A stretch of 59,935 nt of DNA from Verrucomicrobiota bacterium (GTDB taxonomy: Bacteria; Verrucomicrobiota; Verrucomicrobiia; Limisphaerales; UBA8199), in NCBI GenBank assembly GCA_029974925.1, contig JARKQH010000351.1, positions 1-59,935 of the forward strand, in the 5' to 3' direction. Positions 1 through 27,390 of this stretch are shown piece by piece. Under the pieces are notes generated by a model. That model made no database searches. It was not told where the DNA came from and saw nothing but the letters and a program-made list of their open reading frames with translations. A program made the position numbers and the translations under genes. Numbering within the stretch: position 1 is the stretch's first letter; every line of letters begins with the position of its first letter.

Positions 1-102
1 CTTGCGGGCGAGGTGGAGGCGGGCCTGCCAGGAAAAGAGCTCAACTTCCGCCTGGAGATCGGGTTCGAGGATCACTCGCGGTCTTTGAGATTTCATACTC
101 AT
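1..102 (-). CDS. Possible 5' part of a prophage ORF running off the left edge (MSMKSQRPRVILEPDLQAEVELFSWQARLHLARK...)
   Basis: Open frame from ATG at 102 to the window edge, divergent from 179..727; too short to identify. Confidence 0.3.
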   Translation of the reverse strand, partial: MSMKSQRPRVILEPDLQAEVELFSWQARLHLARK

Positions 103-178
103 TTTGAATATGTTGGGATCATATCAGGTGGGGTTGGACAAAGGCTGTCCAGGGGCAATTAAAGAAGCGAATTAGCAT

Positions 179-727
179 ATGACAAAGAGAATGGCATGGA
201 TGGCGCTGGCATTGATGTGGCTGGTGGATGCATATGGGGGCGGCGATGAGGTGATCAAGCAGCGGGCGAACGAGTTGCGGGCGAAGGCCAGGGAGTCGGG
301 GCAATCAGCGCGAGGGGCGAGTCTGGGGAGGCAGCATCCGATGGCGAAGCGGAATCCGGAGGCCTGGGCGGTTCGGGTGCGGGAGCTGGGGAAGGCGCCG
401 TGGCGGGTGGTGGATGGGGTGACGAACCACATCAGCAGCCCGGGATGGATGCACTTTTACGGGCGGGTGACGGGGGTGAATGGGGATGGGGTTTTCGTCA
501 CGGGGCGATATGAGCGGCTGGATGGGCGGGAGCCGATGGCTGGAGAGCGGGATTTTTTCGTGCGGCATTTTCCGTTTTCAGTTGCCGATGGGGATCGCAT
601 TGAGATGGGGCATTGGCTGGTGGCGAAGGAGGCGGGGACGTATCGGTACGTGACGGTGCTGGGCGCCATGAGGACGCTGAGGTGTTTGGATTACGGGGCG
701 GTGGTTGGGCCGCCAGGAAAGAAGTAA
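179..727 (+). CDS. Exported hypothetical protein (prophage moron)
   Basis: Signal-peptide-like N-terminus MTKRMAWMALALMWLVDAYG; beta-rich C-terminus ending Y-x-Y-x-TVLGA-x-RT...DYG; convergent with gpG. Confidence 0.7.
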   Translation: MTKRMAWMALALMWLVDAYGGGDEVIKQRANELRAKARESGQSARGASLGRQHPMAKRNPEAWAVRVRELGKAPWRVVDGVTNHISSPGWMHFYGRVTGVNGDGVFVTGRYERLDGREPMAGERDFFVRHFPFSVADGDRIEMGHWLVAKEAGTYRYVTVLGAMRTLRCLDYGAVVGPPGKK

Positions 728-1730: not shown

Positions 1731-2074
1731 CAGAGCTTGGAGGCGGCGCTGAGCTGGCCGGATGCAAGCAGGGCGTTGAACCGAGCGGCAGCCGCGACAA
1801 TCTTTGGGTGGTCAGTGAGGCGGTCGAATCGCTGGACTATGCCGTCGCGCTCGATATCCGTATAGATAGGCCAATCGGGGTTATTATTGATTGGCTCGCA
1901 ACAGGCCAGGCCGTCTTCGATGAGGGTGGGCTTGGACTGGATGTCGCATTCGATGCCGCTAATGATGGCGCGCGGGACGAAATGGCCGGGCGCGTCCGGG
2001 TCTTCGATGATATAAGCCCTTTCGAACCGCAGGGTATCGAAATTGCTTTCGATTATTTTTGTTCCGTTTCCCAT
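1730..2074 (-). CDS. Small acidic hypothetical protein; candidate immunity protein for the MuF toxin domain
   Basis: 114 aa; start overlaps the MuF 3' end by 22 nt; locally lower GC. Confidence 0.7.
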   Translation of the reverse strand: MGNGTKIIESNFDTLRFERAYIIEDPDAPGHFVPRAIISGIECDIQSKPTLIEDGLACCEPINNNPDWPIYTDIERDGIVQRFDRLTDHPKIVAAAARFNALLASGQLSAASKL

Positions 2075-4794
2075 TTGGTATGGTCTGCGGGCGGGTCAGT
2101 CGAGACGGACTGTCCAGTCACGTTTCGGGTCTTCAGCCCGTGGGCCATGTAGGCGACCTCGTTTTCGCGGTCACCGTAGAAGAAAGTATCGCCCATGCCT
2201 GGACTTTGTTCAAGGAAATAAACGCCCACGATTCGGCAATGAGGCACGGCTGTGACGGTTTTAGCACCGGAAAAGACCTGGGTGAAGAGAGAGCCTGATG
2301 CGTAAATGCCTCTGGGGTATATGCCTGACTCTCCTGGTCGAAACGGTACGGCCCGCGGGTCCTCCTCCGTGCGGAGCACGCGGAGCAATTTGGCCTGGCG
2401 ATCATTGCCTGGGAAATCCATGCGGCCGAGCATTTCCTGGACGAAGGCATGGAACATTTCAAAGGAGCGATCATATACTTGGCGTTGCTGGCCAGAAAGA
2501 CTTGAAAGAATGTCCGCGGGCGGGACGCCATGGAAACTGGATGGCGGGACATTTTGGAGCCGCTCGAATAGCCAACGCTTGAGTTGTTTGGACTCATTAG
2601 AATTTGAGCTTTGTGCTTGGTGATAGGCCCATTTTTTGATGACCTCATAATCGCCGCCGCGTTCGCGCATGTGCGCGGCGAGCCGGACCATGGCACTGTC
2701 CGGTTGGGTGGACGCTTGGCTTTGTGGCATTGGAATTTGGGCGAAATGGCCAATTTTGACGGTGGGCTTGCCTAGCGCCGCTTCGAGCTCGGCGATGGTC
2801 TTGAGATAGGCTTTGGCCATGGCCTGTTCGGCGGGGCTTCCGGAGGTTGCCAGTTGGGCCAGGTGGTTTTTTTGTGCCAAAGCGGCTTGGATTTTGCTCT
2901 GATTATACTGGGTATCGCCTTGGCCATGGTGGAAGTTCACACTGGTCACGGCCGCCTTGATCGTCAAAAACGTCTGTTCATGCGGATTCTCAATGCGAGC
3001 GCGCGAATAACGTGCGGTGCGGAGGTTATCGAAGGCTCGGCCCTGAGCATCGGCGAGGATGACCGGGTCGGTCTTATGCAATGATGCATGGAGTAACCCC
3101 GAGATGCCGGCCTTGCGGAGGCCGATCATTTCCTCGGTGATGCGGTCGGCGTGGCGCGGGATGAAGCTGGCCTCTTTATATTCGAGGGCCTTATTGGCGA
3201 CATCGCGAAGATGCTGGATGCGGCTGGATAGGGCGGGTTGAAGATCGGGCGGCGCGGTGTCCAGGATGGCTTGGAAATTGGTATCGCGAATGGTGGCGGC
3301 GAGTTGATAGAAATCGAGCGAGGCAAAGAGTTGAGCGGTCTGGGGGTTGGTGGCCGGATTGCGGAGAGACCACAATTCGGCTGGGTATTCATCCCACTCG
3401 CTGGCGGATTTGCGGGCGCCCTGGGCGCGGAAGCGGAGGGAGCCTCCGTTGTCAATGCGCCAGACATTGCCCGAGCGATCCACAAGGATGTTATCGAGGG
3501 ATGCGCCGGCGACATCCCAGTTGCCGAGCAGGGCATCAATGTGGAAGCCTTGATGGAGTTGGGCGAGCACGCGCTGTCGGGCTTCCGGGGATGCGCCAGC
3601 GAGGTAATCGTGAAGGGATTGGCCGGCGATGTATTCGGCGATTTTGACGGGGTTGCCGGCGCCATCCTGGACGAGGCGGGCCATGGGGACGCGGATACCG
3701 GCGGCGCGATAGAGAGCATCGGCGGTGAACTCTTCGCGGACATGGTCGGGCGAATTGCCGCGTTTGACGACGAACTGGCGGCCTTTGGCGTCGCGCATGA
3801 GCGTCGCGCCGGTGGATCCGCCCAGGGATCGGACGAAAGAGAGCTGGTCGAGGTCTGGGATATTGGGTTCGGCTGGGCCTGGGGGCTCCTCGGCGGCGGG
3901 CGGTCCGGCGGGGGCTGGGGCTTGCTCGGGCGGGATGGCGAGCTTTTTGCCGGCGCGATCGCCGGTCCACCAGGCGGCGCCGTCCTGGATTTTGATTTGG
4001 CGGCCAAAGACCTGCTTAAGATGAGTGATCAAATCCGGGTCCAGATTGGTGACAGAGGCGTGGAGCTGGTCGTTAAAATCGCGCTCGGCTGTGGGCTTGG
4101 GGAGCTCGCCGGCTTTGAGGAGGCCGAGGGAGACGGCTTCGTCGTAATCCACATCTTCGACGCCCATGCCGGAGTTGAAGTCGAAGGGGGGCCATGGGGT
4201 ATTGAAGCGGGACAATTGGGCCCAGATGGGCGAGGTTTTGAGGGCGACCCATGGGGCGGGCAGGGCATCCTGCCAGGCGATGGCCTCGCCGGCTTCGGCC
4301 CAGCGGGCGCTCCAGTCGCGCGGGACCTTGGCGGCGCGTTCGCGGACGAGGCGCCAGGCTGGGAAAGCGATGAGGGCGCCTGGGGATTGGTCGAGTTTCC
4401 ATCGGGCATAGCCGGTGGCCTGCTGGGTTTGGATGTCGAAAATGAGGCCGAGGCGCGGGATGGAGGTGATATCCTGGATGGTGCCCTGTTTGGCTGGGTC
4501 TGTGGGAGCGAGGCCTTCGGCTGCGGCGAGATCGCGGATGGCATCAATGAAGGAGGAGCGGTCGAAGAGGGCATCCTTATCGCCGGTGAGGCGTTCGCGC
4601 TGGAGGGCGATTTGGGCCTGGAGCCGGTCCTGGATGGCCTGGAGTAGTTTGGCAGAAGTGATGGTGGCTGAGAATTGGGCGCGTTCGCGGAGGGCGAGGG
4701 GGACTTCAGCCCAATCGCGGCTTTTGAGGATTGAGCCGACGGGGGTTTTGGCGGAGATTTTCGCCAGGGCATCGGCGAGCGGTTGAGGTTGCAT
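2053..4794 (-). CDS. MuF (Mu gpF/SPP1 gp7-like) head morphogenesis protein with C-terminal kinase-like and ADP-ribosyltransferase-like domains
   Basis: Directly after the portal. N-terminal MuF-like region (RLGLIFDIQ...PWPPFDFNSGMGV), Pro/Ala linker, GGSTGA...FVVK...EE...DALLGNWDV...DN...RIDNGG kinase motifs, then RVLRTE / YASGS / ENE motifs. Confidence 0.85.
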   Translation of the reverse strand: MQPQPLADALAKISAKTPVGSILKSRDWAEVPLALRERAQFSATITSAKLLQAIQDRLQAQIALQRERLTGDKDALFDRSSFIDAIRDLAAAEGLAPTDPAKQGTIQDITSIPRLGLIFDIQTQQATGYARWKLDQSPGALIAFPAWRLVRERAAKVPRDWSARWAEAGEAIAWQDALPAPWVALKTSPIWAQLSRFNTPWPPFDFNSGMGVEDVDYDEAVSLGLLKAGELPKPTAERDFNDQLHASVTNLDPDLITHLKQVFGRQIKIQDGAAWWTGDRAGKKLAIPPEQAPAPAGPPAAEEPPGPAEPNIPDLDQLSFVRSLGGSTGATLMRDAKGRQFVVKRGNSPDHVREEFTADALYRAAGIRVPMARLVQDGAGNPVKIAEYIAGQSLHDYLAGASPEARQRVLAQLHQGFHIDALLGNWDVAGASLDNILVDRSGNVWRIDNGGSLRFRAQGARKSASEWDEYPAELWSLRNPATNPQTAQLFASLDFYQLAATIRDTNFQAILDTAPPDLQPALSSRIQHLRDVANKALEYKEASFIPRHADRITEEMIGLRKAGISGLLHASLHKTDPVILADAQGRAFDNLRTARYSRARIENPHEQTFLTIKAAVTSVNFHHGQGDTQYNQSKIQAALAQKNHLAQLATSGSPAEQAMAKAYLKTIAELEAALGKPTVKIGHFAQIPMPQSQASTQPDSAMVRLAAHMRERGGDYEVIKKWAYHQAQSSNSNESKQLKRWLFERLQNVPPSSFHGVPPADILSSLSGQQRQVYDRSFEMFHAFVQEMLGRMDFPGNDRQAKLLRVLRTEEDPRAVPFRPGESGIYPRGIYASGSLFTQVFSGAKTVTAVPHCRIVGVYFLEQSPGMGDTFFYGDRENEVAYMAHGLKTRNVTGQSVSTDPPADHTKWETEQK

Positions 4795-4830: not shown

Positions 4831-6501
4831 TCAGGAGCCGGAGCGGATGGCGACATCGGGGTTTTTGCGGACCTGGCGGCGGACCTCGTCGAGGATGGAC
4901 TGGCCCATGGCGGCTTCGAGGAGGCGGGCGAGGTCATCATGATCCATGCGATCGAATAGCTCGGGGATTTTGCGGGTGGCAGCGGAGAGGAAGTCGAGGA
5001 GGTCCTGGTCGGAGAGGGAGTGGTCAGCCGCCTTGGTCTGGAGATCGGCGAGGAAGTCCTGGATGGGATTGAGCCAGGAGCTGGGGACGCCGAGGGATTG
5101 GGCGATGGCATTTTGGGCGGCGAGGGTGCGGAGGGCGGTGGTGGATTGCGGTGCTGGCGAGAAGGATGGGGATGGCGGCGCGGCGGGGACCCGACGCTGG
5201 ATGACCAACCCGAGTCGTTCATTGATGACGGGAATGGACTCATCGGCGGGTTCAAGGCCTGCCCGGGAGAGGATTTCGAGGAGCTCGGCGAGGGTTTTGG
5301 CGTCTTCGTCGGAGAGTCCGCCCCATACTGGTTTTGGGGCAGCGCCGCGGAGACCGTTGATGCGGAGGAATTGGGTGAAGAGCTGTTTGGCAATGGTCTC
5401 GCCCAGCTTGAGCTGGTCGAACATGCGGATGTCTTCTCGGACGGCGGCTTGGAGTGAGGCGGTGCCGGAGCCGAGGCCGGTGGGGGCGGCTTCGGCGGAG
5501 AGTGTTTGGCCGACGATGATTTTGGAGATTTCGCGGTTGCAGACGTTCAGGAATTTTTCGTGGGCATCGGCGAGGCCGGAGATGGCGATTTCTTTGAGTT
5601 CGATTTGGGTATCGTGGTCCACGACGAGCCCGCCGATTTTGCTGGCCAGGGAGAAGGCTTCCTGGAGGAAGGTGATGGCCTCCTGATTTTTGGAGTCGGT
5701 ATGGCCGACGGGGAAGGGAACCCCATAGCGTTCCATGGCGCGGGCGAACCAGTCGCGGGCGAGGGTGGAGACGAGCCACCAGAAGAGGATGGCGCGCATT
5801 GGGCCGCCGAAGCAGTCGCGCAATCCGGTGAGGAGATGGCCACGGTGGACGATATGGCGGTCGGGTTCGAGGGGGTAGGCCTCGGTATAGGAGTAGATGA
5901 CGCGGCCGGAGGAGTCGGTGGCGTAAAGCCGGATATCGGGTTCCCACTCGGCGGGCGGGGCGGTCTCGGCGGGAGTGGGGGCATTCGAGACGGCCGGGGT
6001 TTTGGGTCGGAAGCAGAGCAGGACGGGGTTGATGGGCTCGAAGCGGTGCAGCGTGTAGCGGAGGCCGAGGGCATCGGCGGCATCGCCACGGGCGACCGGC
6101 CGGAAGATTTTCTCGCTCACTGCGACCGGCCAGAGACAGGAATCGAGCAGGTGGATGAGGCCATCGTTCCAGTTTTCGCAGTCGCGGATCATTTGGGTGA
6201 CGGCGGCGGCGGCGCGGAGGTCTTCCGGCTTGGATTTATCGGCGGGAAGGATGGAGAGGGGTTGGGCAATGATGGCGAGTTTGCGCTTGTTGAACTCGGC
6301 CTGGACATGGGAGCCGCCCGCGATCAGATCGCGATAGTAAGTGAAGAGGTTGCGGGTATCGCCGGCTTCGGCCGCGCGGATGGCGGCCTGGACGGCCGAG
6401 ACCGTGGCATTGGCTGAGAGGTTGGCGGGCTCATAGGAGAGGTGCACGCGCGCCTTGCGGGCGGTCGGGATGAGGTTGGCAATAGCTTGGAGGAGGTTCA
6501 T
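4831..6501 (-). CDS. Portal protein (Mu gp29/DUF935 family)
   Basis: After TerL; motifs AMERYGVPFPVG, NREISKIIVGQTLS, QAAVREDIR typical of DUF935. Confidence 0.9.
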   Translation of the reverse strand: MNLLQAIANLIPTARKARVHLSYEPANLSANATVSAVQAAIRAAEAGDTRNLFTYYRDLIAGGSHVQAEFNKRKLAIIAQPLSILPADKSKPEDLRAAAAVTQMIRDCENWNDGLIHLLDSCLWPVAVSEKIFRPVARGDAADALGLRYTLHRFEPINPVLLCFRPKTPAVSNAPTPAETAPPAEWEPDIRLYATDSSGRVIYSYTEAYPLEPDRHIVHRGHLLTGLRDCFGGPMRAILFWWLVSTLARDWFARAMERYGVPFPVGHTDSKNQEAITFLQEAFSLASKIGGLVVDHDTQIELKEIAISGLADAHEKFLNVCNREISKIIVGQTLSAEAAPTGLGSGTASLQAAVREDIRMFDQLKLGETIAKQLFTQFLRINGLRGAAPKPVWGGLSDEDAKTLAELLEILSRAGLEPADESIPVINERLGLVIQRRVPAAPPSPSFSPAPQSTTALRTLAAQNAIAQSLGVPSSWLNPIQDFLADLQTKAADHSLSDQDLLDFLSAATRKIPELFDRMDHDDLARLLEAAMGQSILDEVRRQVRKNPDVAIRSGS

Positions 6502-6648: not shown

Positions 6649-8049
6649 TTAGAGCGATCCTCCATGGTATGAGCCCACGGCGACGGCTTGGGCGTATCCG
6701 GCGGTTTTGCTTTGCCGCGCGGCGTGGAGAGCCAGCGCGAGCGCCCAAAAGCGATCGGCGTGGCCATTTTTGCCGCGGTCGGCAGTAAAGCGGATGTTGC
6801 CGGCGGCGGTGGTTTCTTTTTTGACCGCGCGGAGGTCCGCGCGGATGGCTGGGTCGGACGGGATGCGGATCGAGCGGTCCTCGAAGGCAGCGCGGAGGGG
6901 ATAGGCTAGCTCTTCCTTGACTGGGGCGCTGAATTGGACTGGTTCAACTCGGTAGGGGCCGAAGCGGCGTTGGGCGCGTTCGGCGAATTGGCGTCCGATG
7001 CCGGTGGCGTCAATGCAGGCGCGGCGCAGGGCGGGGAGGTGGAGGAGCTGGTAGAGCCGGTCTTCCTGGGCATCGAAAGGGGTGTTCTGGAGGGTGAGGA
7101 CGGTGCGCGTGTAGCAGACATCGCCGAGCCGTTCGAGGACCCAGATGACGGTCAGGTCATGGTCGCGGCCGACGTCCACGCCCACGTAGAGGCGGCCTTT
7201 GGCGTCGAGGAGGTCTGTCTGCCAGGGATCGGCAGGCTGATATTCGCAGGCCTGGATGAGGTCATAGGAGAGGAAGGCGGCCGAGTCATCGGAGGGGATG
7301 CACATGTATTCCTGGAGGAAGGTTTCCTCGTCGGGGCAACCGCGGCGGACGAAATCGAAATAATCGGCCTCATCCATGGCCTGGCGCTCGTCGCCGGGCT
7401 GGAGTTTGGACTGGAGCTTGTAGAGGAAGCCCTGGTCGAGGGCGTCCTGGAGAGTGATGCGGTGGTGGGAGATACGCTTTGGGTTGCCTTTATGCACGAT
7501 CTCATTGACGAGATCGGCGAAGAAATTGGCTGAGCCGCGATGGGTCGAGATGATTTCAAGGGAACCGCCCCAGGTGATGCCTGGGTAGGCGATGGCATAG
7601 AGTTTGCGGGGGTCGGCATGGAGCGCGAACTCGTCGAGGATACGGCGGCCGCGTTTGCCGGCTTGGGCGTCGGGGTTGGAGGAGAGGGAATGCGTGCGAT
7701 GGCCGTTGGCGTATTGCAGGACATATGCCGAGTTTTTCGAGGCATCCACGACGGTTTGGCCGAGGTCGGCGGCGGCGACATGGAGGAGGGCGGCGAAGTG
7801 TTTGCAATCCTCGATGAGGAGGCGGGCCTGGAGGTCGTCGCGGGAGGAGACCCAATCATCGGTGGAGGAGTTTTGGAGGGAGGTGGTGGAGACCAGCTTG
7901 TAGGCGGTGGCCCAGGACATGCCGATTTGGCGGGATTTTTCGACGAGGATGAGCCGGGATTTGTCGCGGATGTAGCGGGCCTGATATGGGAGCATGAGGG
8001 CATCCCTGGACGGGATGACTTTGGCTCGGCCTGGGCGACGTGAGCTCAT
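6649..8049 (-). CDS. terL: Terminase large subunit (Mu gp28-like)
   Basis: LPYQ...EKSRQIGMSW Walker A, ILDEFA Walker B, GVDVGR nuclease motif, HADRFWALALA terminus. Confidence 0.95.
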   Translation of the reverse strand: MSSRRPGRAKVIPSRDALMLPYQARYIRDKSRLILVEKSRQIGMSWATAYKLVSTTSLQNSSTDDWVSSRDDLQARLLIEDCKHFAALLHVAAADLGQTVVDASKNSAYVLQYANGHRTHSLSSNPDAQAGKRGRRILDEFALHADPRKLYAIAYPGITWGGSLEIISTHRGSANFFADLVNEIVHKGNPKRISHHRITLQDALDQGFLYKLQSKLQPGDERQAMDEADYFDFVRRGCPDEETFLQEYMCIPSDDSAAFLSYDLIQACEYQPADPWQTDLLDAKGRLYVGVDVGRDHDLTVIWVLERLGDVCYTRTVLTLQNTPFDAQEDRLYQLLHLPALRRACIDATGIGRQFAERAQRRFGPYRVEPVQFSAPVKEELAYPLRAAFEDRSIRIPSDPAIRADLRAVKKETTAAGNIRFTADRGKNGHADRFWALALALHAARQSKTAGYAQAVAVGSYHGGSL

Positions 8050-8699
8050 AGGAGCCTGGCGGCTTCCTCGATTTTGGCGAGGGTCTCGGGGGTGATGCCG
8101 CCGGCTTTCGCATCTGAGAGGGCGCCTTCGATCCGGCGTTTTTGAGCGGCGACCTTCTCCTGATATTCCTTGAGCCGCTGCTGGAATGCGGCTTTGGCGA
8201 GCGCCAATTCCTCATCCTTGCGTTTGAGGCGTTCGGCGTCGAGGTTGGCGCGTTGTTGGGCGATTTCGGTGGAGCGGAGGGAGGTGAGACCGCGGATGAG
8301 CTCGGCGAGCTCTGCTGGATCATGCTGTTTGTGGTCGGCGGCCGCCTCGGCGGCTTCAAGGAGCTCAAGGATTTTTCCGGCGGCGATGGCGGCAGCGCCG
8401 GCGGCGATGGAAGAATCATTGGCCTTGGCGAGATCGGCGGCGAAGGCGGCAAGCTCTTTGATGCGGTGGGTCCGGTCCTGTTTGCGGAGCCAGTCCTGGT
8501 ATCCTCCCTGACGCCAGTCGGACAGGTTTTGGGCGTTGATCGGCTTGCCGCCGAATCGGGCGGATAGGACCTGGACGGCCTCCGGATGGCTGTTGATCCA
8601 TGGCAGAATGTCCGGTCCAAGCTGGCCGGCCTGGAGCCGGCGGTTGAGTTCCTCGCGCAGGGCCAGGGGGAGGCGCGCGATTTTGCCGATGCGGGCCAT
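8046..8699 (-). CDS. Terminase small subunit (DUF3486/Mu gp27-like)
   Basis: GKIARLPLALREELNRRL N-terminus; stop overlaps the TerL start. Confidence 0.85.
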   Translation of the reverse strand: MARIGKIARLPLALREELNRRLQAGQLGPDILPWINSHPEAVQVLSARFGGKPINAQNLSDWRQGGYQDWLRKQDRTHRIKELAAFAADLAKANDSSIAAGAAAIAAGKILELLEAAEAAADHKQHDPAELAELIRGLTSLRSTEIAQQRANLDAERLKRKDEELALAKAAFQQRLKEYQEKVAAQKRRIEGALSDAKAGGITPETLAKIEEAARLL

Positions 8700-11367: not shown

Positions 11368-12327
11368 ATGAGTAGAGGATACACAACGTTACTCGATATC
11401 GCGGCCCGCAGCGGCAGTGATGCCGTCGTGGGGCTGATTGAGGATGCCACGACCTATGCGCCGGAATTTTCGGTGATTCCGGCGATGACCAAGCCGGGGA
11501 CGACTTACCGCGTGACGCGGCGGACCGACCTGCCCACCGCGAGTTTTCGGGCGGTGAATGAATCGGCGGCGATTGGCAAGAGCACTTTTGAGCAGGAATT
11601 GAAGCAGATGTACTTCCTGGACGTGCCATTGCAGGTGGACGAGGCCGCGGTGAAGGGGGACGACGGGTCGGCTGGGGACTTTCTGGCGCAGGAAGCGCAG
11701 GGGGCGTTGGCAGCGGCGACGATCAAGCTGGGGCGGCAGGTGTATTACGGCACCAGCGCGGATGCGAAGGGATTCGCCGGGCTGCAGAGCCAGTCCGTGG
11801 GCAAGTGGCCCGCCGGCGGGACGACCAACACGACGAGCGCCTACCTTGTATGGCTCGGGCGGCAGGGGGTTGCATTCGTGATCGGGCGGGATGGCGAGAT
11901 CGCATTGCCGGCGTGGACGAAGCAGGCGGTCACGGCCGACGCGACGCAGCGGATGGCCTGGGTGACGAATCTGAGCGCCTATGTAGGCTTGCAAGTGGGC
12001 AGCGCCAAGGCGGTATGGCGGGTGACCGGCATCAGCGTGGCGGCTCCACTGACGGATGCGCGTGGGGCCGGCCTGTTGAGCAAGGTGCCGCTGGATCGCA
12101 GGGCTGGACTGCGCTGGTTCATGAACCGCACGGCGATTTACACGCTGCAGAAGAGCCGGGCGACCGCGGGATATATTGCTGCGACGCCCGGAGGCAGCCC
12201 GACACAGGAAGTAGGGTTCTGGATGGAGGCGCCGACCACACTGGCCGGCATACCGATTACGCTGACGGACAGCCTGCTAGATACCGAGACGAACTCGGGC
12301 ACGGCTGACACCTACGCCGAGGAATGA
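11368..12327 (+). CDS. Major capsid protein
   Basis: Follows the protease; 319 aa; RRTDLPTASFRAVNE...KGFAGL...GIPITLTDSL pattern of HK97-fold capsids. Confidence 0.85.
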   Translation: MSRGYTTLLDIAARSGSDAVVGLIEDATTYAPEFSVIPAMTKPGTTYRVTRRTDLPTASFRAVNESAAIGKSTFEQELKQMYFLDVPLQVDEAAVKGDDGSAGDFLAQEAQGALAAATIKLGRQVYYGTSADAKGFAGLQSQSVGKWPAGGTTNTTSAYLVWLGRQGVAFVIGRDGEIALPAWTKQAVTADATQRMAWVTNLSAYVGLQVGSAKAVWRVTGISVAAPLTDARGAGLLSKVPLDRRAGLRWFMNRTAIYTLQKSRATAGYIAATPGGSPTQEVGFWMEAPTTLAGIPITLTDSLLDTETNSGTADTYAEE

Positions 12328-14608: not shown

Positions 14609-15081
14609 TGACGATTGCGGAACAATTGAAGGCGATCGCAGCGGTATTGAGGCCATGGGCGGAGCGGAACCGGAGCTCGGTGACCATCTTGTCGGACCAG
14701 GTGCACCTGCTGGAACTCTTGCGTCTGAAGCCCGGCGCGGTGCTGATTGGGCTCCTGTTTGAGAGCGAGACCGTGCGGGGGGAATGGGATAACCTTGGGC
14801 GGGTGGACCGGGCATACAAAGTGATTGTGACGCGCGGTCGCGGGCTGAAGCTGGACAGCGGCGAGAGCCTGGTGGGGACCAGCTCGGAGGATCGGCCTGT
14901 ATTCGAGCTGGTGGAGGAGGCGCGGGAACTGGTGCGGACGGCGGAGATTGGCGAGGTTGAGGGACGGCCGGAATATCGCGGGATCGGCCAGTATGAATTG
15001 CAGGGGGCGATATTTGACGGATGGGAAGTGCGATTTGTGATTGGCACGGCGATCCCGGAGTTGGTGGAGGGGGCGTCATGA
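14608..15081 (+). CDS. Tail completion/terminator protein (Mu gp37-like position)
   Basis: Start reassigned to ATG 14608 (TGATG overlap with gp36); 157 aa. Confidence 0.6.
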   Translation: MTIAEQLKAIAAVLRPWAERNRSSVTILSDQVHLLELLRLKPGAVLIGLLFESETVRGEWDNLGRVDRAYKVIVTRGRGLKLDSGESLVGTSSEDRPVFELVEEARELVRTAEIGEVEGRPEYRGIGQYELQGAIFDGWEVRFVIGTAIPELVEGAS

Positions 15082-18000
15082 GCCGATGCGCAGCAGTATT
15101 ATTGGCGATCCTTGGACTGTCCATGCCGGCCTGGGGCGTGACGGTGCGCTTTGCTCTGAGCGATTTCACTGCGCAGCCGGCGGCCAACCGGCGGGTGCTG
15201 GTGGCGCCTTTGGGGCCGACGACGAACGAGAGCGCGGTGGTGTCGGCGGATTTGGCGCGGTACACGACGGATACCAATGGGGTGTTTTGGATGTCGAATG
15301 TGGTCGCTGGATATTATGAGGCGCAGGTGCAGGCGCCGCCGACGCGGAGCACATTGCTGTTCCAGTTTCCGGGCGGGACGAATACGGTGGAGGCGAAGGA
15401 TTACCTGGTGCCGCCGGCGGATGCACCGCTGAATCTGGCTTACACTAAGGCCGAGGTGGATGCGTTGATTGCAGCGGCGGGCGCGGGCGGGGCGCTGACC
15501 AACAACGAGACGCGGGACGTGAGCTTTCAGGGGGCGCTGTCGGTGTCCAGCAATGTGACGGTTGCCTCGCTGGTGTCAATTGACACCCTTGGAGTTGGCC
15601 GGTTCAAGGGGTTGCAGGGTATCGGCGAGGGCGAGCCGGTGCAAGCCCCGGACGGGATTGTCAAGAACGAGTACTGGGAACCATTGGACCTGCCGAGCGG
15701 GTTCAATGTTGGTTACGGAGCAATAATCGCGAATGATGCCGGGAACTTTACCACGTATGGCACGGTCACCGCAGCAGCTTTGGTCGGCAACGGCAACGGC
15801 CTGACCAACCTCACAGCCAGCAATTCCATTGTGGCCGGCACAATCACCACGAACCTGATGGATGCGGCGGCATATGCCTTGTTTGCCAGCAGCGGCAGCG
15901 CCGAGAGTTTGGTGTATAACGTAACGGACTTTGGTGCGAACGGTGCGGACGGTAATGACGACACTGTGGCTATTCAGGCAGCGTTGGATGCAGCGGCGGC
16001 TGGATACGACACCTATACCGGTCGGCGTATCGTGTATCTGCCGGCTGGACGGTACTACATCACCAACACCCTTTGGTTGAAGAATCACGGCATTACCGTG
16101 CGCGGCGATGGCATGTACGCCACCTTAATTCGAATGCAGGCCAACACCAATGCGTTCGGCAGTTGGACCAACCGGGTGCTGTGGTACTGCAACTTTGAGA
16201 AGTTCAATGTTTATAAGGATGTCGTGCTGCAGAGTGTGGCAACCCCGGCAGCGTTCTACTTTGTGGCGCCGGATTCGAAGCAAGTGGCACATCGGTTTAG
16301 GTTCGATGAGGTGGGGTGCAGCGGGTTTTACTATGGAATCTATGTGCGGCACGCTGTGGGACTGTACGCTCAGCGGTGCGAGTTTTACGGGTGCAATTAC
16401 GCCTTCTACATGGAGAAGAGTGATGCGACCACGTTTGTGAACTGTCACGCCGGGGACGCCTACGACTCGCAAAGTGCGATAGCCTCGGCTACGAACCGGT
16501 TTGGGGCCACGCATTCGGCTGCGTGGACATACAAGAACACCCCTACAGCCTCCAGGGGGTTTTCGCTGGTAGTGATTGGGGGAGAGTCCCGGCGGGTGGA
16601 TAACGTGTTCGACCTCCAGTCTGGCGTGGTGAATATCGTAGGGACTCATTGTGAGCTGATTTATGACAGCTTGTTGAAGGCGTCCGGGTCTGGTGTCTCC
16701 GGCGGTATCGTGTCTGGTCTCTCGTGCGTGAATCTGGTGGAGAGCCGGACACCGCACGCAGCCATGCGGTTTTTGGATGGCACCGGCAGGCGGTTTTCTC
16801 TCGGACCCTGTTATTGGCCGTACAGCCGCCCACTGGCGCAGGTGGAGCAGGCGGGGGATTATGTGCACTACACCGGCCAGCCAGTGTTGATGAGCAATAC
16901 CGTTTCGAGCATCAGTTGGTACATGCCCGTGGCTACGAACAAGGTGGTGGTGGCGGCCGGGAACAATGTGACCGTGACGCCATCGCAGTCTGGGCCAGTG
17001 ACCACTTACACCGTGGCTGCCACTGGCGGCAGTGCTGCACCGACGCCAGCGCGGGTGTACACCACCAACTACACCGTGGACCTAAGCCAGAGCGGATACC
17101 TGGAGTTGGTGAGCACAGGGGAGGCGTTTGGCTTATCCCTGAGCAATGCGGGCGAGCGGTCGGTCACGGTGCTGACGACGACCAATCCGATCAATTACGT
17201 GTCCTGGCCGCGCGCGTGGTGGTCGGCGGGTGAGCCGTCCGGCCTCGGTTACAACTACGCGCTGCGGATGCGGATTCAGCGGGTGAACAGTGATGACGTA
17301 GCGCACATCACAGCCTCAGAGGTCGAATGCGCGCCGCTGGTGGATGAGGACGCGCAAGCCTTCCTAGACCGCGCGGGCATCACCGACGCTACCATCAGCA
17401 ATGCGGTGCAGGGCCTGGTCGTAGCCTTGAAGGCGACCAACTTGTGGTCCAAGGCTGATGCCATTTTCCCGTTTGTGGGCGGGACAAGCAACAGCACGCG
17501 GATGAATCTGCGACGGGACGACAAGCACATTGTTTGGGGCAACCAAGTGACGTTTGATGCGGATGGCGTGTGGGGCAAGAAGGGGCTTGCGCCGGGGGTG
17601 GGACGCGGCGAGTTCGCATGGGACTTCACGAGCACGACGAACCAATTTCAGACCAACGCCTGCTCGATTGGGTGGTACATCGGGGTGACACATACGAACG
17701 TCGCGAACAACGAAAACGTTGTATGCATGGGCGCGTTTTCGTTTGGTGGCCGCAGTGTGTTTGGTTGCTGGGCACAATATGGCACGAATCTCAATGGCCA
17801 ACTGTGTGGCTGGACCACTGTGGGCACGACGGGTGCATCGGAGTTTCGTGGGGCGACGGTCGTTTCGCGAACCAACAGCACGAGCTTGTTTGGTGTTGGG
17901 CGTATTACCGCGTCCAGCACGTCATCGAGCACGACCGGCACGCCTACGAGCGCGACGCAATTTGGCATCCTCGGCGCGGACGACGGCGAGGCGCAGAACT

Positions 18001-18125
18001 ACCTATGCTACCCCGGTCAGCTTCGGTTTGCGTGGGTGGGCGGTGCGCTCAGCGCGAATGAGGCGTTGGAACTCAAGCGGTTGATGGACGTGTTTAACAC
18101 TGCCTTGGGTCGGGCGGCGCCGTGA
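15078..18125 (+). CDS. Tail-spike-like depolymerase with N-terminal signal peptide, Stf-like N domain, beta-helix and C-terminal lectin-like domain
   Basis: Start at ATG 15078 (ATGA overlap). MSRCAAVLLAILGLSMPAWG signal; VYNVTDFGA...DDTVAIQAA...VYLPAGRYYI beta-helix entry motif; DEDAQAFLDRAGITD...LWSKADAIFPFVGG phage domain. Confidence 0.85.
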   Translation: MSRCAAVLLAILGLSMPAWGVTVRFALSDFTAQPAANRRVLVAPLGPTTNESAVVSADLARYTTDTNGVFWMSNVVAGYYEAQVQAPPTRSTLLFQFPGGTNTVEAKDYLVPPADAPLNLAYTKAEVDALIAAAGAGGALTNNETRDVSFQGALSVSSNVTVASLVSIDTLGVGRFKGLQGIGEGEPVQAPDGIVKNEYWEPLDLPSGFNVGYGAIIANDAGNFTTYGTVTAAALVGNGNGLTNLTASNSIVAGTITTNLMDAAAYALFASSGSAESLVYNVTDFGANGADGNDDTVAIQAALDAAAAGYDTYTGRRIVYLPAGRYYITNTLWLKNHGITVRGDGMYATLIRMQANTNAFGSWTNRVLWYCNFEKFNVYKDVVLQSVATPAAFYFVAPDSKQVAHRFRFDEVGCSGFYYGIYVRHAVGLYAQRCEFYGCNYAFYMEKSDATTFVNCHAGDAYDSQSAIASATNRFGATHSAAWTYKNTPTASRGFSLVVIGGESRRVDNVFDLQSGVVNIVGTHCELIYDSLLKASGSGVSGGIVSGLSCVNLVESRTPHAAMRFLDGTGRRFSLGPCYWPYSRPLAQVEQAGDYVHYTGQPVLMSNTVSSISWYMPVATNKVVVAAGNNVTVTPSQSGPVTTYTVAATGGSAAPTPARVYTTNYTVDLSQSGYLELVSTGEAFGLSLSNAGERSVTVLTTTNPINYVSWPRAWWSAGEPSGLGYNYALRMRIQRVNSDDVAHITASEVECAPLVDEDAQAFLDRAGITDATISNAVQGLVVALKATNLWSKADAIFPFVGGTSNSTRMNLRRDDKHIVWGNQVTFDADGVWGKKGLAPGVGRGEFAWDFTSTTNQFQTNACSIGWYIGVTHTNVANNENVVCMGAFSFGGRSVFGCWAQYGTNLNGQLCGWTTVGTTGASEFRGATVVSRTNSTSLFGVGRITASSTSSSTTGTPTSATQFGILGADDGEAQNYLCYPGQLRFAWVGGALSANEALELKRLMDVFNTALGRAAP

Positions 18126-25008: not shown

Positions 25009-25931
25009 GGTCTCCACTACGAGTTGGGCAGGATGCCAGGAGGAACTGGCGCAGGATTAACGAGCTGGATGCGGCCTTGGCCAGGACGGATCGCGCCGTA
25101 GAGGCCCAGGGGATTGAGCTGGCGGGGATGGGGAGATTGGCGGCATATCAGGGGTTGGGATTGCATCCATTCCGGCTATACCGGCTGACTTTGAGGCGGG
25201 TGGGGTGGAGCGGAGGCGCCGAGTGGCGGACTTTCCGCGTGCGGGCGGGGCGAGTGATGGGCACGGATGTGACGTCCGGGACGGATGGTGTGGCTGATCC
25301 CGACGGGGGTGTGAAGCCGGATGGGCCATTCGATGTGGTGGTGCCGGAGAATTGTCCGAGGTATTGGTTCTGGCTGGATTTGAGCGGGACGCCGACGGTG
25401 CGACATGGGGAGGACCCAGCACAATCCGGCTGGAGCGGATGTCCGGAGCCGGATGCGGAGCATGTGCCGATTGGGTGGGTGGATACGCGCAGCAAGGCCG
25501 CCGAGGGTATCGCGGTAGTCCGGCAGTTTTTGCGGGGCGATGTAGTGGTGGCCGGAGGGGGCGGCGCGGAGGTGAAGCGGTACCGCGTGAAAAGCGTCTC
25601 GGCGAATTATCTGGTTTGCCGCACGTGGGATGGCGCGAATGAGGGCGGGGCGGATGTCAATGTGGCCAAAGCGCCGGAGCTGCGACATGTGGCGAGTGAG
25701 GCTGTGGAGGGGATCACGATCTCTTACACGTATCAGTCGCGGCCCGACAATCTGGATGGCCAGCGGCTTGCCAGCGCGGCCGGGTTTGCCACCCAGACCG
25801 AGATTGTGATCCCGGTGTGGCGTGTGAACTCGGAGATTTGGGCGGTGAAGCCTTCCGGGGGCACGGGTGTGACCGAGGCGGCTTGGTTGGACCTGAATGC
25901 GGCCGGGCGGATGTGGTGCCAGGTATTGTAA
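25005..25931 (+). CDS. Putative tail tip/baseplate protein
   Basis: Start reassigned to ATG 25005 (ATGA overlap); N-terminal coiled coil then beta domains; 308 aa. Confidence 0.6.
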   Translation: MRSPLRVGQDARRNWRRINELDAALARTDRAVEAQGIELAGMGRLAAYQGLGLHPFRLYRLTLRRVGWSGGAEWRTFRVRAGRVMGTDVTSGTDGVADPDGGVKPDGPFDVVVPENCPRYWFWLDLSGTPTVRHGEDPAQSGWSGCPEPDAEHVPIGWVDTRSKAAEGIAVVRQFLRGDVVVAGGGGAEVKRYRVKSVSANYLVCRTWDGANEGGADVNVAKAPELRHVASEAVEGITISYTYQSRPDNLDGQRLASAAGFATQTEIVIPVWRVNSEIWAVKPSGGTGVTEAAWLDLNAAGRMWCQVL

Positions 25932-26806
25932 TGAGCATCCCTGCCAGCAGCATGTTGGGAAGCAGCCTGCGGAGCTCGATGCAAGGCGCAATGCTCCGCG
26001 AAGCGAGACGGGTCGGCATGTTATGCAGGGAGCATTTTGTTCTGCCAAATGCTATCTACCGGACGGAATGGTGGGCGGCCGATTCGGCGCATATTGCGGC
26101 GTCACACAGATTCATCGTAACATCATATGGCCCACCTGATACTCCATGGCCAACCATGTCGCATATTGAGACCAAGATCGTGGAGGCGCCGGGATGGACG
26201 TTGACAAGCGGGGCGTGGCAATTGCCCATGTGGGCGGTGCAATCTACCGGCGACCACTTCATCATCAATCGCGTTCCGGGATCATACAACGCCACGTATT
26301 TCACCACGATGGGTTCCATGGTCTTCCCGCAGCCTGGCGGCGAAATTTCCGATTCGATATTTCTGCGTCGTGGGCGATGGCGCATCACATATCAAGCGGA
26401 GATCGGCGATGTTGCGTTCTTCACTACTCAGGTGCAGGTGGGAGAATTTGAATATCAAGTCGAACATCGGGATTACGCAATTTTTGAGATATGGATGACA
26501 CCGCGCTGGAGCAGCATGGCGGCCAATAGCGTGCCGGGATCGAATTGGCTGCCGCCGGCGATGTGGGTGCCTGGCTCTGGGCCTGACCCGCGCGCCAAAT
26601 TAGTGGTGCGGGAATTAATAGGCCGGAACGGCTCGATCAGTGGCCAGCGTGAGCTCGATTTGTTCGACGGATGTTATTGGGCTGGATGGGTCTCAACGTT
26701 GGCTCTTGGCGATTACTACGTTTTTCCGGATTATATCCCCTGGCGGTGGCCGATCGGAGAAGAACAGTTCGGATCATATCTTGATGTCTGGTTTGAACGG
26801 ATCTGA
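25931..26806 (+). CDS. Last prophage gene, putative receptor-binding/tail protein
   Basis: Start at ATG 25931 (TAATG overlap); 291 aa, Trp/Tyr-rich, lower GC than neighbours. Confidence 0.65.
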   Translation: MSIPASSMLGSSLRSSMQGAMLREARRVGMLCREHFVLPNAIYRTEWWAADSAHIAASHRFIVTSYGPPDTPWPTMSHIETKIVEAPGWTLTSGAWQLPMWAVQSTGDHFIINRVPGSYNATYFTTMGSMVFPQPGGEISDSIFLRRGRWRITYQAEIGDVAFFTTQVQVGEFEYQVEHRDYAIFEIWMTPRWSSMAANSVPGSNWLPPAMWVPGSGPDPRAKLVVRELIGRNGSISGQRELDLFDGCYWAGWVSTLALGDYYVFPDYIPWRWPIGEEQFGSYLDVWFERI

Positions 26807-26810
26807 CTGT

Positions 26811-26843
26811 CGAGACCTCCGCATATAGGCAGCGGATGTCTCG
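26811..26843 (+). terminator. Hairpin after the last tail gene
   Basis: CGAGACCTCCGC (26811-26822) / GCGGATGTCTCG (26832-26843): 12-bp stem with one mismatch, 9-nt loop. Confidence 0.55.
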
Positions 26844-26867
26844 CGGTGCTTCGGCCAGGCCGCCGCA

Positions 26868-26940
26868 GACCCATCGCAGACCCATTCAGGCGCACGTTAC
26901 GACCCATTCACGCTACGCGCGCCTTTTTCCCCAGTTTTCA
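26868..26940. repeat. Putative prophage right end with transposase-binding repeats and terminal CA
   Basis: GACCCAT at 26868, GACCCATTCA at 26879 and 26901 (11- and 22-bp spacing); ...CAGTTTTCA ends at 26940 next to host coding sequence. Confidence 0.65.
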
Positions 26941-27390
26941 GTCCAATCCACCGCCGAGGCCAGGGACCATGCCCGGGCGGTCTATTGGATCACTCAGGTC
27001 CTGTTTGCCCTCTTGTTGATTGTCGCCGTGGTCATCGCGGTATTCGCGCTCATTGCCTCCATGGCCGGCGCGGTGCTCGAGCGGCGGCGCGAGGTCGGGG
27101 TGCTCAAGGCGTTGGGCTTGCGCCGCGGGGGATTGTTCAAGCTGTTTTTGCTCGAAGCCCTCGTGCTGACCCTTTCCGCCGGCATTGCCGGAGGGGTCGT
27201 GGGTTTCGCGCTGGCCTGGCTTTTTGTTTATCAAGCCACCGTCCTTATGGAAATTGCGGCTGCTTTTACCATGCCTTACCTCACGTTTGCCGCCACCCTC
27301 GTAATCAGCCTCCTGGCCGGCTTGCTGGCCTCCTACATCCCCACGCGGAGTCTCCTGCGCCAAACCGCGGCCGGGATTCTTCGCGGATGA
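26941..27390 (+). pseudogene. 3' remnant of an FtsX/MacB-type ABC permease interrupted by the prophage
   Basis: AVLERRREVGVLKALG FtsX motif plus three to four TM helices; the 5' part is replaced by phage-end sequence. Confidence 0.85.

Follow-up and report, generated by a model that had tools for sequence, protein, structure and literature searches.

A Mu-like transposable prophage with non-canonical ends splits an FtsX-family permease gene in a Verrucomicrobiota bacterium

Introduction

Where exactly does a prophage stop and the host gene that it interrupts resume, and what do its tips and its footprint in the target say about the way it was inserted? The question is raised by positions 26811–27390 of a 59,935-nucleotide stretch of DNA from a Verrucomicrobiota bacterium (the window), which is the whole of contig C481 in an assembly of 487 contigs (G000). 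A preliminary description made from the letters alone had placed the right end of a Mu-type prophage here, disrupting a permease of the FtsX family, and this was borne out when we found both junctions. A terminal CA-3′ and a D-D-E triad are treated as near-invariant in Mu, Tn7, and retroviral-type transposition. From the analysis given below, we conclude that the element is a Mu-like transposable prophage with non-canonical ends.

Results

The right end of the prophage

The last phage gene, found by the Pfam/PHROG search, occupies window positions 25817–26806 on the + strand, and it is followed on the same strand by an imperfect hairpin at 26811–26843 (CGAGAC-C-TCCGC / GCGGA-T-GTCTCG; 11 pairs and a 9-nt loop). 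This hairpin had been described as terminator-like. The hairpin itself is there, with a fold of −24.1 kcal/mol, but its likeness to a terminator did not hold up: there is no T-tract, a terminator scan did not call it, and its z score against shuffled sequence is −1.47, with 22 of 200 shuffles folding as well or better. Downstream of it are phased GACCCAT repeats, just as first described, with starts at 26868, 26879, and 26901 and thus spacings of 11 and 22 bp; the last two contain exact copies of GACCCATTCA.

The prophage/host boundary lies at 26930/26931, as determined from an intact permease orthologue in a genome of the same genus (G001) and from contigs of the empty site in four metagenomes. 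DNA identity between G001 and the window begins at CCAGTTTTC, which is 26931, and is lost further left, and the CAGTTTTCA at the boundary, which encodes Q-F-S, is host permease sequence in the same-genus intact orthologue and in the empty-site contigs from sludge and wastewater. The permease protein of G001 has ...RYQFSVQSTAEA... where the window encodes ...PQFSVQSTAEA.... The junction had been expected at 26940/26941, with a tolerance of about 5 nt and with the permease frame resuming at V-Q-S (26941), but it is found 10 nt further left and the frame resumes at Q-F-S (26932), according to both the G001 orthologue and the empty-site contigs. That the intact G001 homologue aligns further left than 26941 is an outcome that the preliminary description had itself named as speaking against its junction. 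The TTTTCA with its terminal CA (26939–26940), which had been taken for the phage tip, is host DNA; since identity with the G001 protein and DNA starts at 26931, these bases are the permease codons F-S. The terminal 20 nt of the prophage are therefore those at 26911–26930 on the + strand (CGCTACGCGCGCCTTTTTCC), and the 3′ tip is CC rather than CA. Immediately to the right, at 26931–26934 on the + strand, is the right copy of a target-site duplication, CCAG, which is single in the empty site and double in the lysogen. There is also a sharp compositional boundary at this place, with a GC skew on the + strand of the window of +0.2 to +0.39 until about 26900 and of about 0 after it.

The split permease

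The host gene encodes an FtsX-family permease, and the colinear full-length orthologue in G001 covers both of the pieces found in G000. In G001 the gene is intact: its open frame of 937 codons encodes a protein of 909 aa that has two FtsX stretches, the second of them covering residues 784–901. In tblastn searches, residues 1–786 of the G001 open frame match C327:10854-8497, on a second contig of the same assembly, and residues 786–937 match window positions 26932–27387. The insertion interrupts codon 758 of the 909, some 26 codons ahead of the second FtsX domain, so that the 3′ remnant in the window (26932–27390, + strand) consists of the last 152 codons, equivalent to G001 residues 758–909, and contains the second FtsX domain. 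The remnant is 89% identical to G001 (tblastn) and matches Pfam FtsX with an E value of 1e-18.

An ATG at 26836 had been noted to be in frame with the FtsX remnant, and it does open a hybrid frame of 184 aa at 26836–27390 (+ strand), made of 32 codons from the phage end and 152 permease codons. This ATG sits in the 3′ arm of the hairpin at 26811–26843, and we found no promoter-like site near it. On the other side of the insertion, the reading frame of the permease 5′ part continues through 96 codons of the left phage end (ORF C327:10770-8206, − strand), running across the end sites L1–L3 described below; a permease–phage fusion product of 854 aa is possible. Disruption of the permease is an ordinary consequence of insertion.

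The left junction and the extent of the prophage

The 5′ part of the permease and inverted TGAATGGGTC repeats had been predicted for the left junction, and both are present, on contig C327. There, the permease 5′ part is followed by CCAG (C327:8497-8500 on the other strand) and then by the phage, and the junction reads ...GTTACCAG followed directly by GGGGACC...; in the permease direction, C327 runs ...GATGTGCGTTACCAG up to the junction and GGGGACCGCTACGGGAGGGTTGAATCTGGTC... beyond it. Two copies of TGAATGGGTC are found at this left end, at nt 104–113 and 116–125, and they are inverted with respect to the right end. The phage was expected to start with TG on this side, but it starts with GG.

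The two contigs can be joined directly, because the reverse complement of C327:1-141 is identical to window positions 1–141. From this exact 141-bp overlap, it follows that the prophage, with a length of 35,285 bp, is complete and that the break of the assembly inside it is an assembler artefact. No other contig of the assembly has ends shared by the start of C327 or the start of the window. The prophage thus consists of a right part of 26.9 kb (window 1–26930, + strand), delimited by Pfam/PHROG matches, the 141-bp overlap, and GC skew, and a left part of 8.5 kb (G000:C327:8496 to 1), which overlaps window positions 1–141. The overlap is located between the early operon and a divergent gene for a protein of 182 aa (window 179–727). 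Small contigs of high skew were considered as a missing middle of the prophage; none fitted, and the 141-bp overlap left no gap for one.

The left junction also bears on a canonical Mu-type end, in which the phage would stop at the CA of TTTTCA (26940), begin with TG on the left, and be flanked by a duplication of 5–6 bp, GTCCA or GTCCAA. TTTTCA is indeed present and the permease frame is open from there, and most of the transposable phages described so far are TG/CA-tipped with duplications of 5–6 bp (PMC8705779). However, the bases at 26931–26940 (CCAGTTTTCA) are the same as in the unoccupied site of four metagenomes and are conserved in G001, and the host sequence at the left junction ends ...TTACCAG and is then followed by GGGG, with neither GTCCA nor TG present. 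Moreover, no placement of the duplication yields a TG at the left end. A canonical TG/CA end with a 5–6-bp duplication is thus refuted by G001, the left junction, and the empty-site contigs together, and we give it a probability close to nil.

The empty site and the length of the duplication

The unoccupied site is present on contigs of four public runs, each from a different study (samples of sludge, bioreactor sludge, activated sludge, and wastewater). These contigs match the window from 26931 rightwards with 0–1 differences over 300 bp and break exactly at 26931. To the left of this position, all of them carry ...GGAGATTCGCGAGCGGTTTGATGTGCGTTA, the same host sequence as on C327, and the empty site reads ...GATGTGCGTTA and then CCAGTTTTCAG. 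Phage contigs are present as well in 2 of the 4 runs. Since empty-site contigs occur in four runs, two of which also contain phage contigs, sludge and wastewater populations are polymorphic for the insertion, and the phage is apparently active.

CCAG occurs once in the empty site, both in the four runs and in G001, and twice in the lysogen, and the base in front of it, C at 26930, is A in the empty site. From these two observations, it follows that the duplication is at most 4 bp long. A short target-site duplication that is single-copy in the empty site is therefore present as expected for a transposable phage, but it is CCAG in place of the GTCCA or GTCCAA of 5–6 bp that had been predicted. 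The footprint is 5 bp for Mu and 6 bp for B3; TG/CA tips, a 5–6-bp duplication, or both are found in published transposable phages; and the described Mu- and B3-like phages were all TG–CA tipped until the Leptospira TA-TA prophages (PMC8705779). Our search of the literature returned no paper on footprints of 4 bp or less or on GG/CC tips in transposable phages, and none describing transposable phages of Verrucomicrobiota or their ends.

The tips of the prophage are 5′-GG...CC-3′, which does not conform to TG...CA, and with placements of the duplication at 2–4 bp both 3′ tips are C. The footprint is read here from one insertion of this phage, and different features of the ends favor different lengths: a 4-bp duplication brings the TGAAT halves of the outermost sites L1 and R1 into register (at nt 21), a 3-bp duplication does so for the GGTC halves, and 2 bp is what the best terminal inverted repeat, GGGGA/TCCCC, requires. 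The locus is also a single base (26930, C instead of A) short of a 5-bp repeat, and Mu and Tn7 use 5 bp, so one may suppose a duplication of ACCAG whose right copy was later mutated to CCCAG or mis-assembled, with a right tip of ...TTTTTC. Such a repeat would require a later A-to-C change, given the A before CCAG in the empty site and the C at 26930, and thus an extra event; it would also put R1 out of register with L1 (20 versus 21 nt) and would still leave GG, not TG, at the left end. We therefore hold a mutated 5-bp duplication to be quite improbable and continue with a duplication of 4 bp or less.

Inverted sites at both ends

With distances counted from the tips and a 4-bp duplication assumed, each end of the prophage carries three sites. 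At the right end, on the + strand of the window, R1 (26901–26910; nt 21–30 from the tip) and R2 (26879–26888; nt 43–52) are exact copies of GACCCATTCA, and R3 (26868–26875; nt 56–63) is a partial site, GACCCATC. At the left end on C327, L1 (nt 21–31 from the tip) has one extra base, and L2 (nt 104–113) and L3 (nt 116–125) are exact copies of GACCCATTCA. All six sites point outward and are inverted between the two ends, and L1 and R1 are equidistant from their tips, both starting at nt 21, given the 4-bp duplication. In the 5.73-Mb genome there are 11 exact copies of the 10-mer, about as many as chance would give. Four of them form two pairs, one at each prophage junction and within 125 bp of it, and all four point outward; no other two copies in the genome are close together. 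A blind search of the joined prophage for inverted clusters returned only these end sites.

The sites of MuA in phage Mu are arranged as L1, a gap, and L2–L3 at the left end and as contiguous R1–R3 at the right end. The arrangement here, with L1, a gap of about 80 bp, and L2–L3 against contiguous R1-R2-R3, bears out the suggestion that the repeats resemble the layout of MuA sites. From their position and symmetry, the GACCCATTCA repeats are very probably sites at which the transposase binds the prophage ends.

The same repeats could in principle be regulatory sites, such as operators bound by the HTH_17 or repressor-like proteins, or packaging signals, with the transposase recognizing something else. 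The stop codon of the last gene at the left end (the HTH_17 gene, C327:8077-8373) does overlap L3, and binding of the transposase is read here from the placement of the sites. Yet within the prophage the sites occur only at the two ends and are mutually inverted, one copy lies 20 nt from each tip, and the L1/gap/L2–L3 versus R1-R2-R3 layout is that known for MuA sites. Operators would furthermore be expected where the divergent promoters lie, midway along the prophage, and that region has no copy. Regulatory or packaging sites thus seem to us an improbable alternative to putative transposase-binding sites.

Virion genes and the transposition machinery

The 35,285-bp element is of phage size and carries virion genes. 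Pfam and PHROG matches in the window identify a MuF-like gene (2053–4794, −), a Mu-type portal (4831–6501, −; E 7e-50), a large terminase (6649–8049, −), a major capsid gene (11368–12327, +), and a tailspike gene (15021–18125, +). On C327, the early operon (C327:40-8373, +) is transcribed towards the left end and includes genes for a transposase (C327:1121-3655, +; PHROG_310, E 7e-14), a MuB-like AAA+ ATPase (C327:3673-4626, +; AAA_22, E 2e-14; PHROG_296, E 2e-18), Gam (C327:5931-6650, +; Phage_Mu_Gam, E 4e-21), and, with its stop codon overlapping L3, the HTH_17 protein (C327:8077-8373, +; HTH_17, E 6e-9). Also on the + strand are a gene for a DnaA_C-type HTH protein (C327:7322-7765; Bac_DnaA_C, E 1e-15) and a frame matching PHROG_1123 (C327:7608-8075). 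An ORF of 185 aa on the − strand (C327:7821-8378) overlaps the plus-strand frames 7608-8075 and 8077-8373, and because the family matches fall on the plus-strand frames, the 185-aa ORF is probably a shadow frame. In relatives, the tblastn matches of the left-end frames of both strands land on the same DNA.

The real start of the transposase is probably near C327:1700, since its homologues are 650–750 aa long. At E 0.01 or better it has no Pfam hit except a weak HTH_29, and neither a sequence nor a profile search matched it to a PDB entry. True relatives of MuA all carry the Mu models PF02914 (DDE_2), PF09299 (Mu-transpos_C), and PF09039 (HTH_Tnp_Mu_2), and the transposase matches none of these models for MuA proper; an hhalign comparison with MuA is weak (E 0.03–0.045). 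An AlphaFold2 model of the protein (pLDDT 79) is matched by Foldseek to ShCAST TnsB (4e-14) and to the Mu transpososome (4fcy; 7.5e-10), with a TM score of 0.63 against the MuA core (1bcm), and Tn7 TnsB was matched as well. By this predicted fold only, the transposase is a member of the MuA/retroviral-integrase DDE superfamily. It has more than 170 homologues in metagenomes, almost none of which has a Pfam core domain.

Three acidic residues are invariant in our alignment of the transposase (alignment A1): D252 at the end of β1, E333 at the end of β4, and E366 in the helix after β5. The weak hhalign alignment puts D252 on the aspartate of the MuA GDG motif, E366 on MuA E392, and E333 at the place of MuA D336. 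The motifs around them are EADDAT for D252, W-R-F-E-x-G-x-W for E333, and PHQKPFIEGLFN for E366; D252 and E366 are conventional, and the invariant E333 is found at the place that the second catalytic Asp has in MuA, TnsB, and integrases. From these positions we infer a putative D-E-E catalytic triad, with Glu as the middle residue.

Relatives of the prophage

One insertion of this phage is seen, and two of its relatives (L043 and L035) lie in different contexts. In L043, the phage adjoins a recombinase-like gene, and the end sites CCACCCATTCACC and ACCCCTATTCAGG lie at distances of roughly 115 and 22 nt from this junction; this relative appears to have split a gene as well. The phage end at L043:19830-20103 (the sites and then ...ACGCGCGCCC) abuts a frame that resembles the helix-E region of a serine recombinase; the frame lacks the N-terminal catalytic part of such an enzyme. 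L035 has five GAAT(G/T)GGT sites at the start of its contig, and in a degenerate-motif scan for clusters over 63 metagenome loci only L035 was real; the clusters in L041 and L048 are false positives in coding sequence. The homologue P0001 is 86% identical to the transposase. Next to a transposase of 62% identity (G388:C22), the early region is conserved, and a search within 60 kb yielded neither structural genes nor a second end. An inverted-cluster search with 8-mers in G159, G160, G236, and G305 gave only chance matches, in high-GC regions. Within IMG/VR, a single-protein search found no relative and the L2–L3 pattern had no match; the matches to the R1–R2 pattern were two unrelated low-GC phages with 22-bp iterons. 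The order of genes varies within the lineage: in L035 a phage end lies on the upstream side of the early operon, which is also the Mu arrangement; in L037 and L054 the early genes lead directly into the packaging genes; and in L045 and L039 packaging and early genes are divergent.

Site-specific insertion, with a serine or a tyrosine recombinase acting on a short core of CCAG and the repeats serving as arm-type or accessory sites, has to be weighed here. Serine integrases need few identical core bases and often split genes, and the tips of this prophage are not CA. However, a six-frame search of the genome returned neither Phage_integrase nor Resolvase matches on the two contigs of the prophage (C327 and C481), and no Resolvase match anywhere in the genome; the phage has a transposase of MuA/TnsB fold together with a MuB-like ATPase and Gam; and the relatives adjoin unrelated sequence, L043 in a recombinase-like gene. 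Site-specific recombination is thus highly improbable as the origin of the insertion, and transposition is the reading that we take further.

Strand bias

The prophage has a GC skew of +0.233 on the permease-sense strand, as compared with about −0.03 in the host flanks, and the median absolute GC skew of 5-kb windows across the genome is 0.047. The skew is uniform, does not depend on the direction of the genes, and ends at both junctions. At third codon positions, where it is concentrated, the values are −0.5 to −0.63 for genes running leftward and +0.1 to +0.45 for those running rightward. Skew of this type is shared by only two of about 40 related loci, L035 and L036.

Discussion

We consider it highly likely that window positions 1–26930 and C327:1-8496 form one complete 35,285-bp Mu-like prophage that was inserted by DDE transposition into codon 758 of the 909-codon permease. 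This reading follows from the two junctions, the empty site, the increase of CCAG from one copy to two, the outward-pointing sites at both ends, the transposase of MuA/TnsB fold with its MuB-like ATPase and Gam, and the lack of a site-specific recombinase.

In the mechanism that we propose, subunits of the transposase would bind the GACCCATTCA sites R1–R3 and L1–L3 and pair the two prophage ends. The enzyme would then cleave after the terminal ...CC-3′ of each strand, and the cleaved ends would be joined to the target at positions staggered by 4 bp (possibly 3); repair of this stagger would give rise to the CCAG duplication. The split permease would be inactivated, with its 5′ part (758 codons) extended by 96 phage-encoded codons, and its 3′ part could come only from the in-frame ATG at 26836 or from read-through of the late operon.

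A broader proposal is that the phage belongs to a large undescribed lineage of Verrucomicrobiota transposable phages that cleave at CC-3′ with a D-E-E triad and a 4-bp stagger, and that the strand bias reflects strictly one-directional replication. We regard this proposal as a whole as possible, while leaning somewhat against it. The CC tips, the shorter stagger, and the probable middle Glu offer a test of how fixed the chemistry of Mu, Tn7, and retroviral-type transposition is. The end sequences together with the transposase would serve as genetic tools for Verrucomicrobiota, which have few, and the locus indicates that Mu-like prophages can escape both Pfam-based searches for transposases and end finders based on TG/CA.

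Comparison with known systems

The prophage is like Mu in being temperate and about 36 kb long, in its transpositional integration with a target duplication, and in encoding a transposase, an AAA+ activator of target DNA, and Gam along with a Mu-type portal and MuF-like head genes. It shares with Mu three inverted sites per end, with L1 set apart from L2–L3 and with contiguous R1–R3. It differs from Mu in having GG...CC tips rather than TG...CA and a duplication of at most 4 bp rather than 5, as well as in a site core of about 10 bp (GACCCATTCA) that starts 21 nt from the tip. Its transposase is missed by the Pfam models for MuA and apparently has Glu as the middle catalytic residue, its early operon points towards the left end, and its head genes are in two divergent blocks.

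Like the prophages of the B3/Tn552 type and the Leptospira TA-TA group, the element was defined in silico by comparing occupied with empty sites, and the Leptospira group is the published precedent for tips other than TG/CA (PMC8705779). Those prophages have a 6-bp duplication and a 3′-terminal A (PMC8705779), whereas the one described here has a duplication of 4 bp or less and a 3′-terminal C, and its host phylum is Verrucomicrobiota.

The best structural matches of the transposase are to TnsB of Tn7 and of CRISPR-associated transposons (ShCAST; 7svw, 8ea3, and 9bw1; E 4e-14 to 4e-10), and TnsB systems likewise use an AAA+ partner and arrays of end sites. In contrast, elements of the Tn7 type are not phages; their tips are TGT...ACA, their duplications are 5 bp long, and they depend on TnsA/TnsC and on targeting proteins. 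The prophage shows none of these Tn7 features and carries a full set of virion genes instead.
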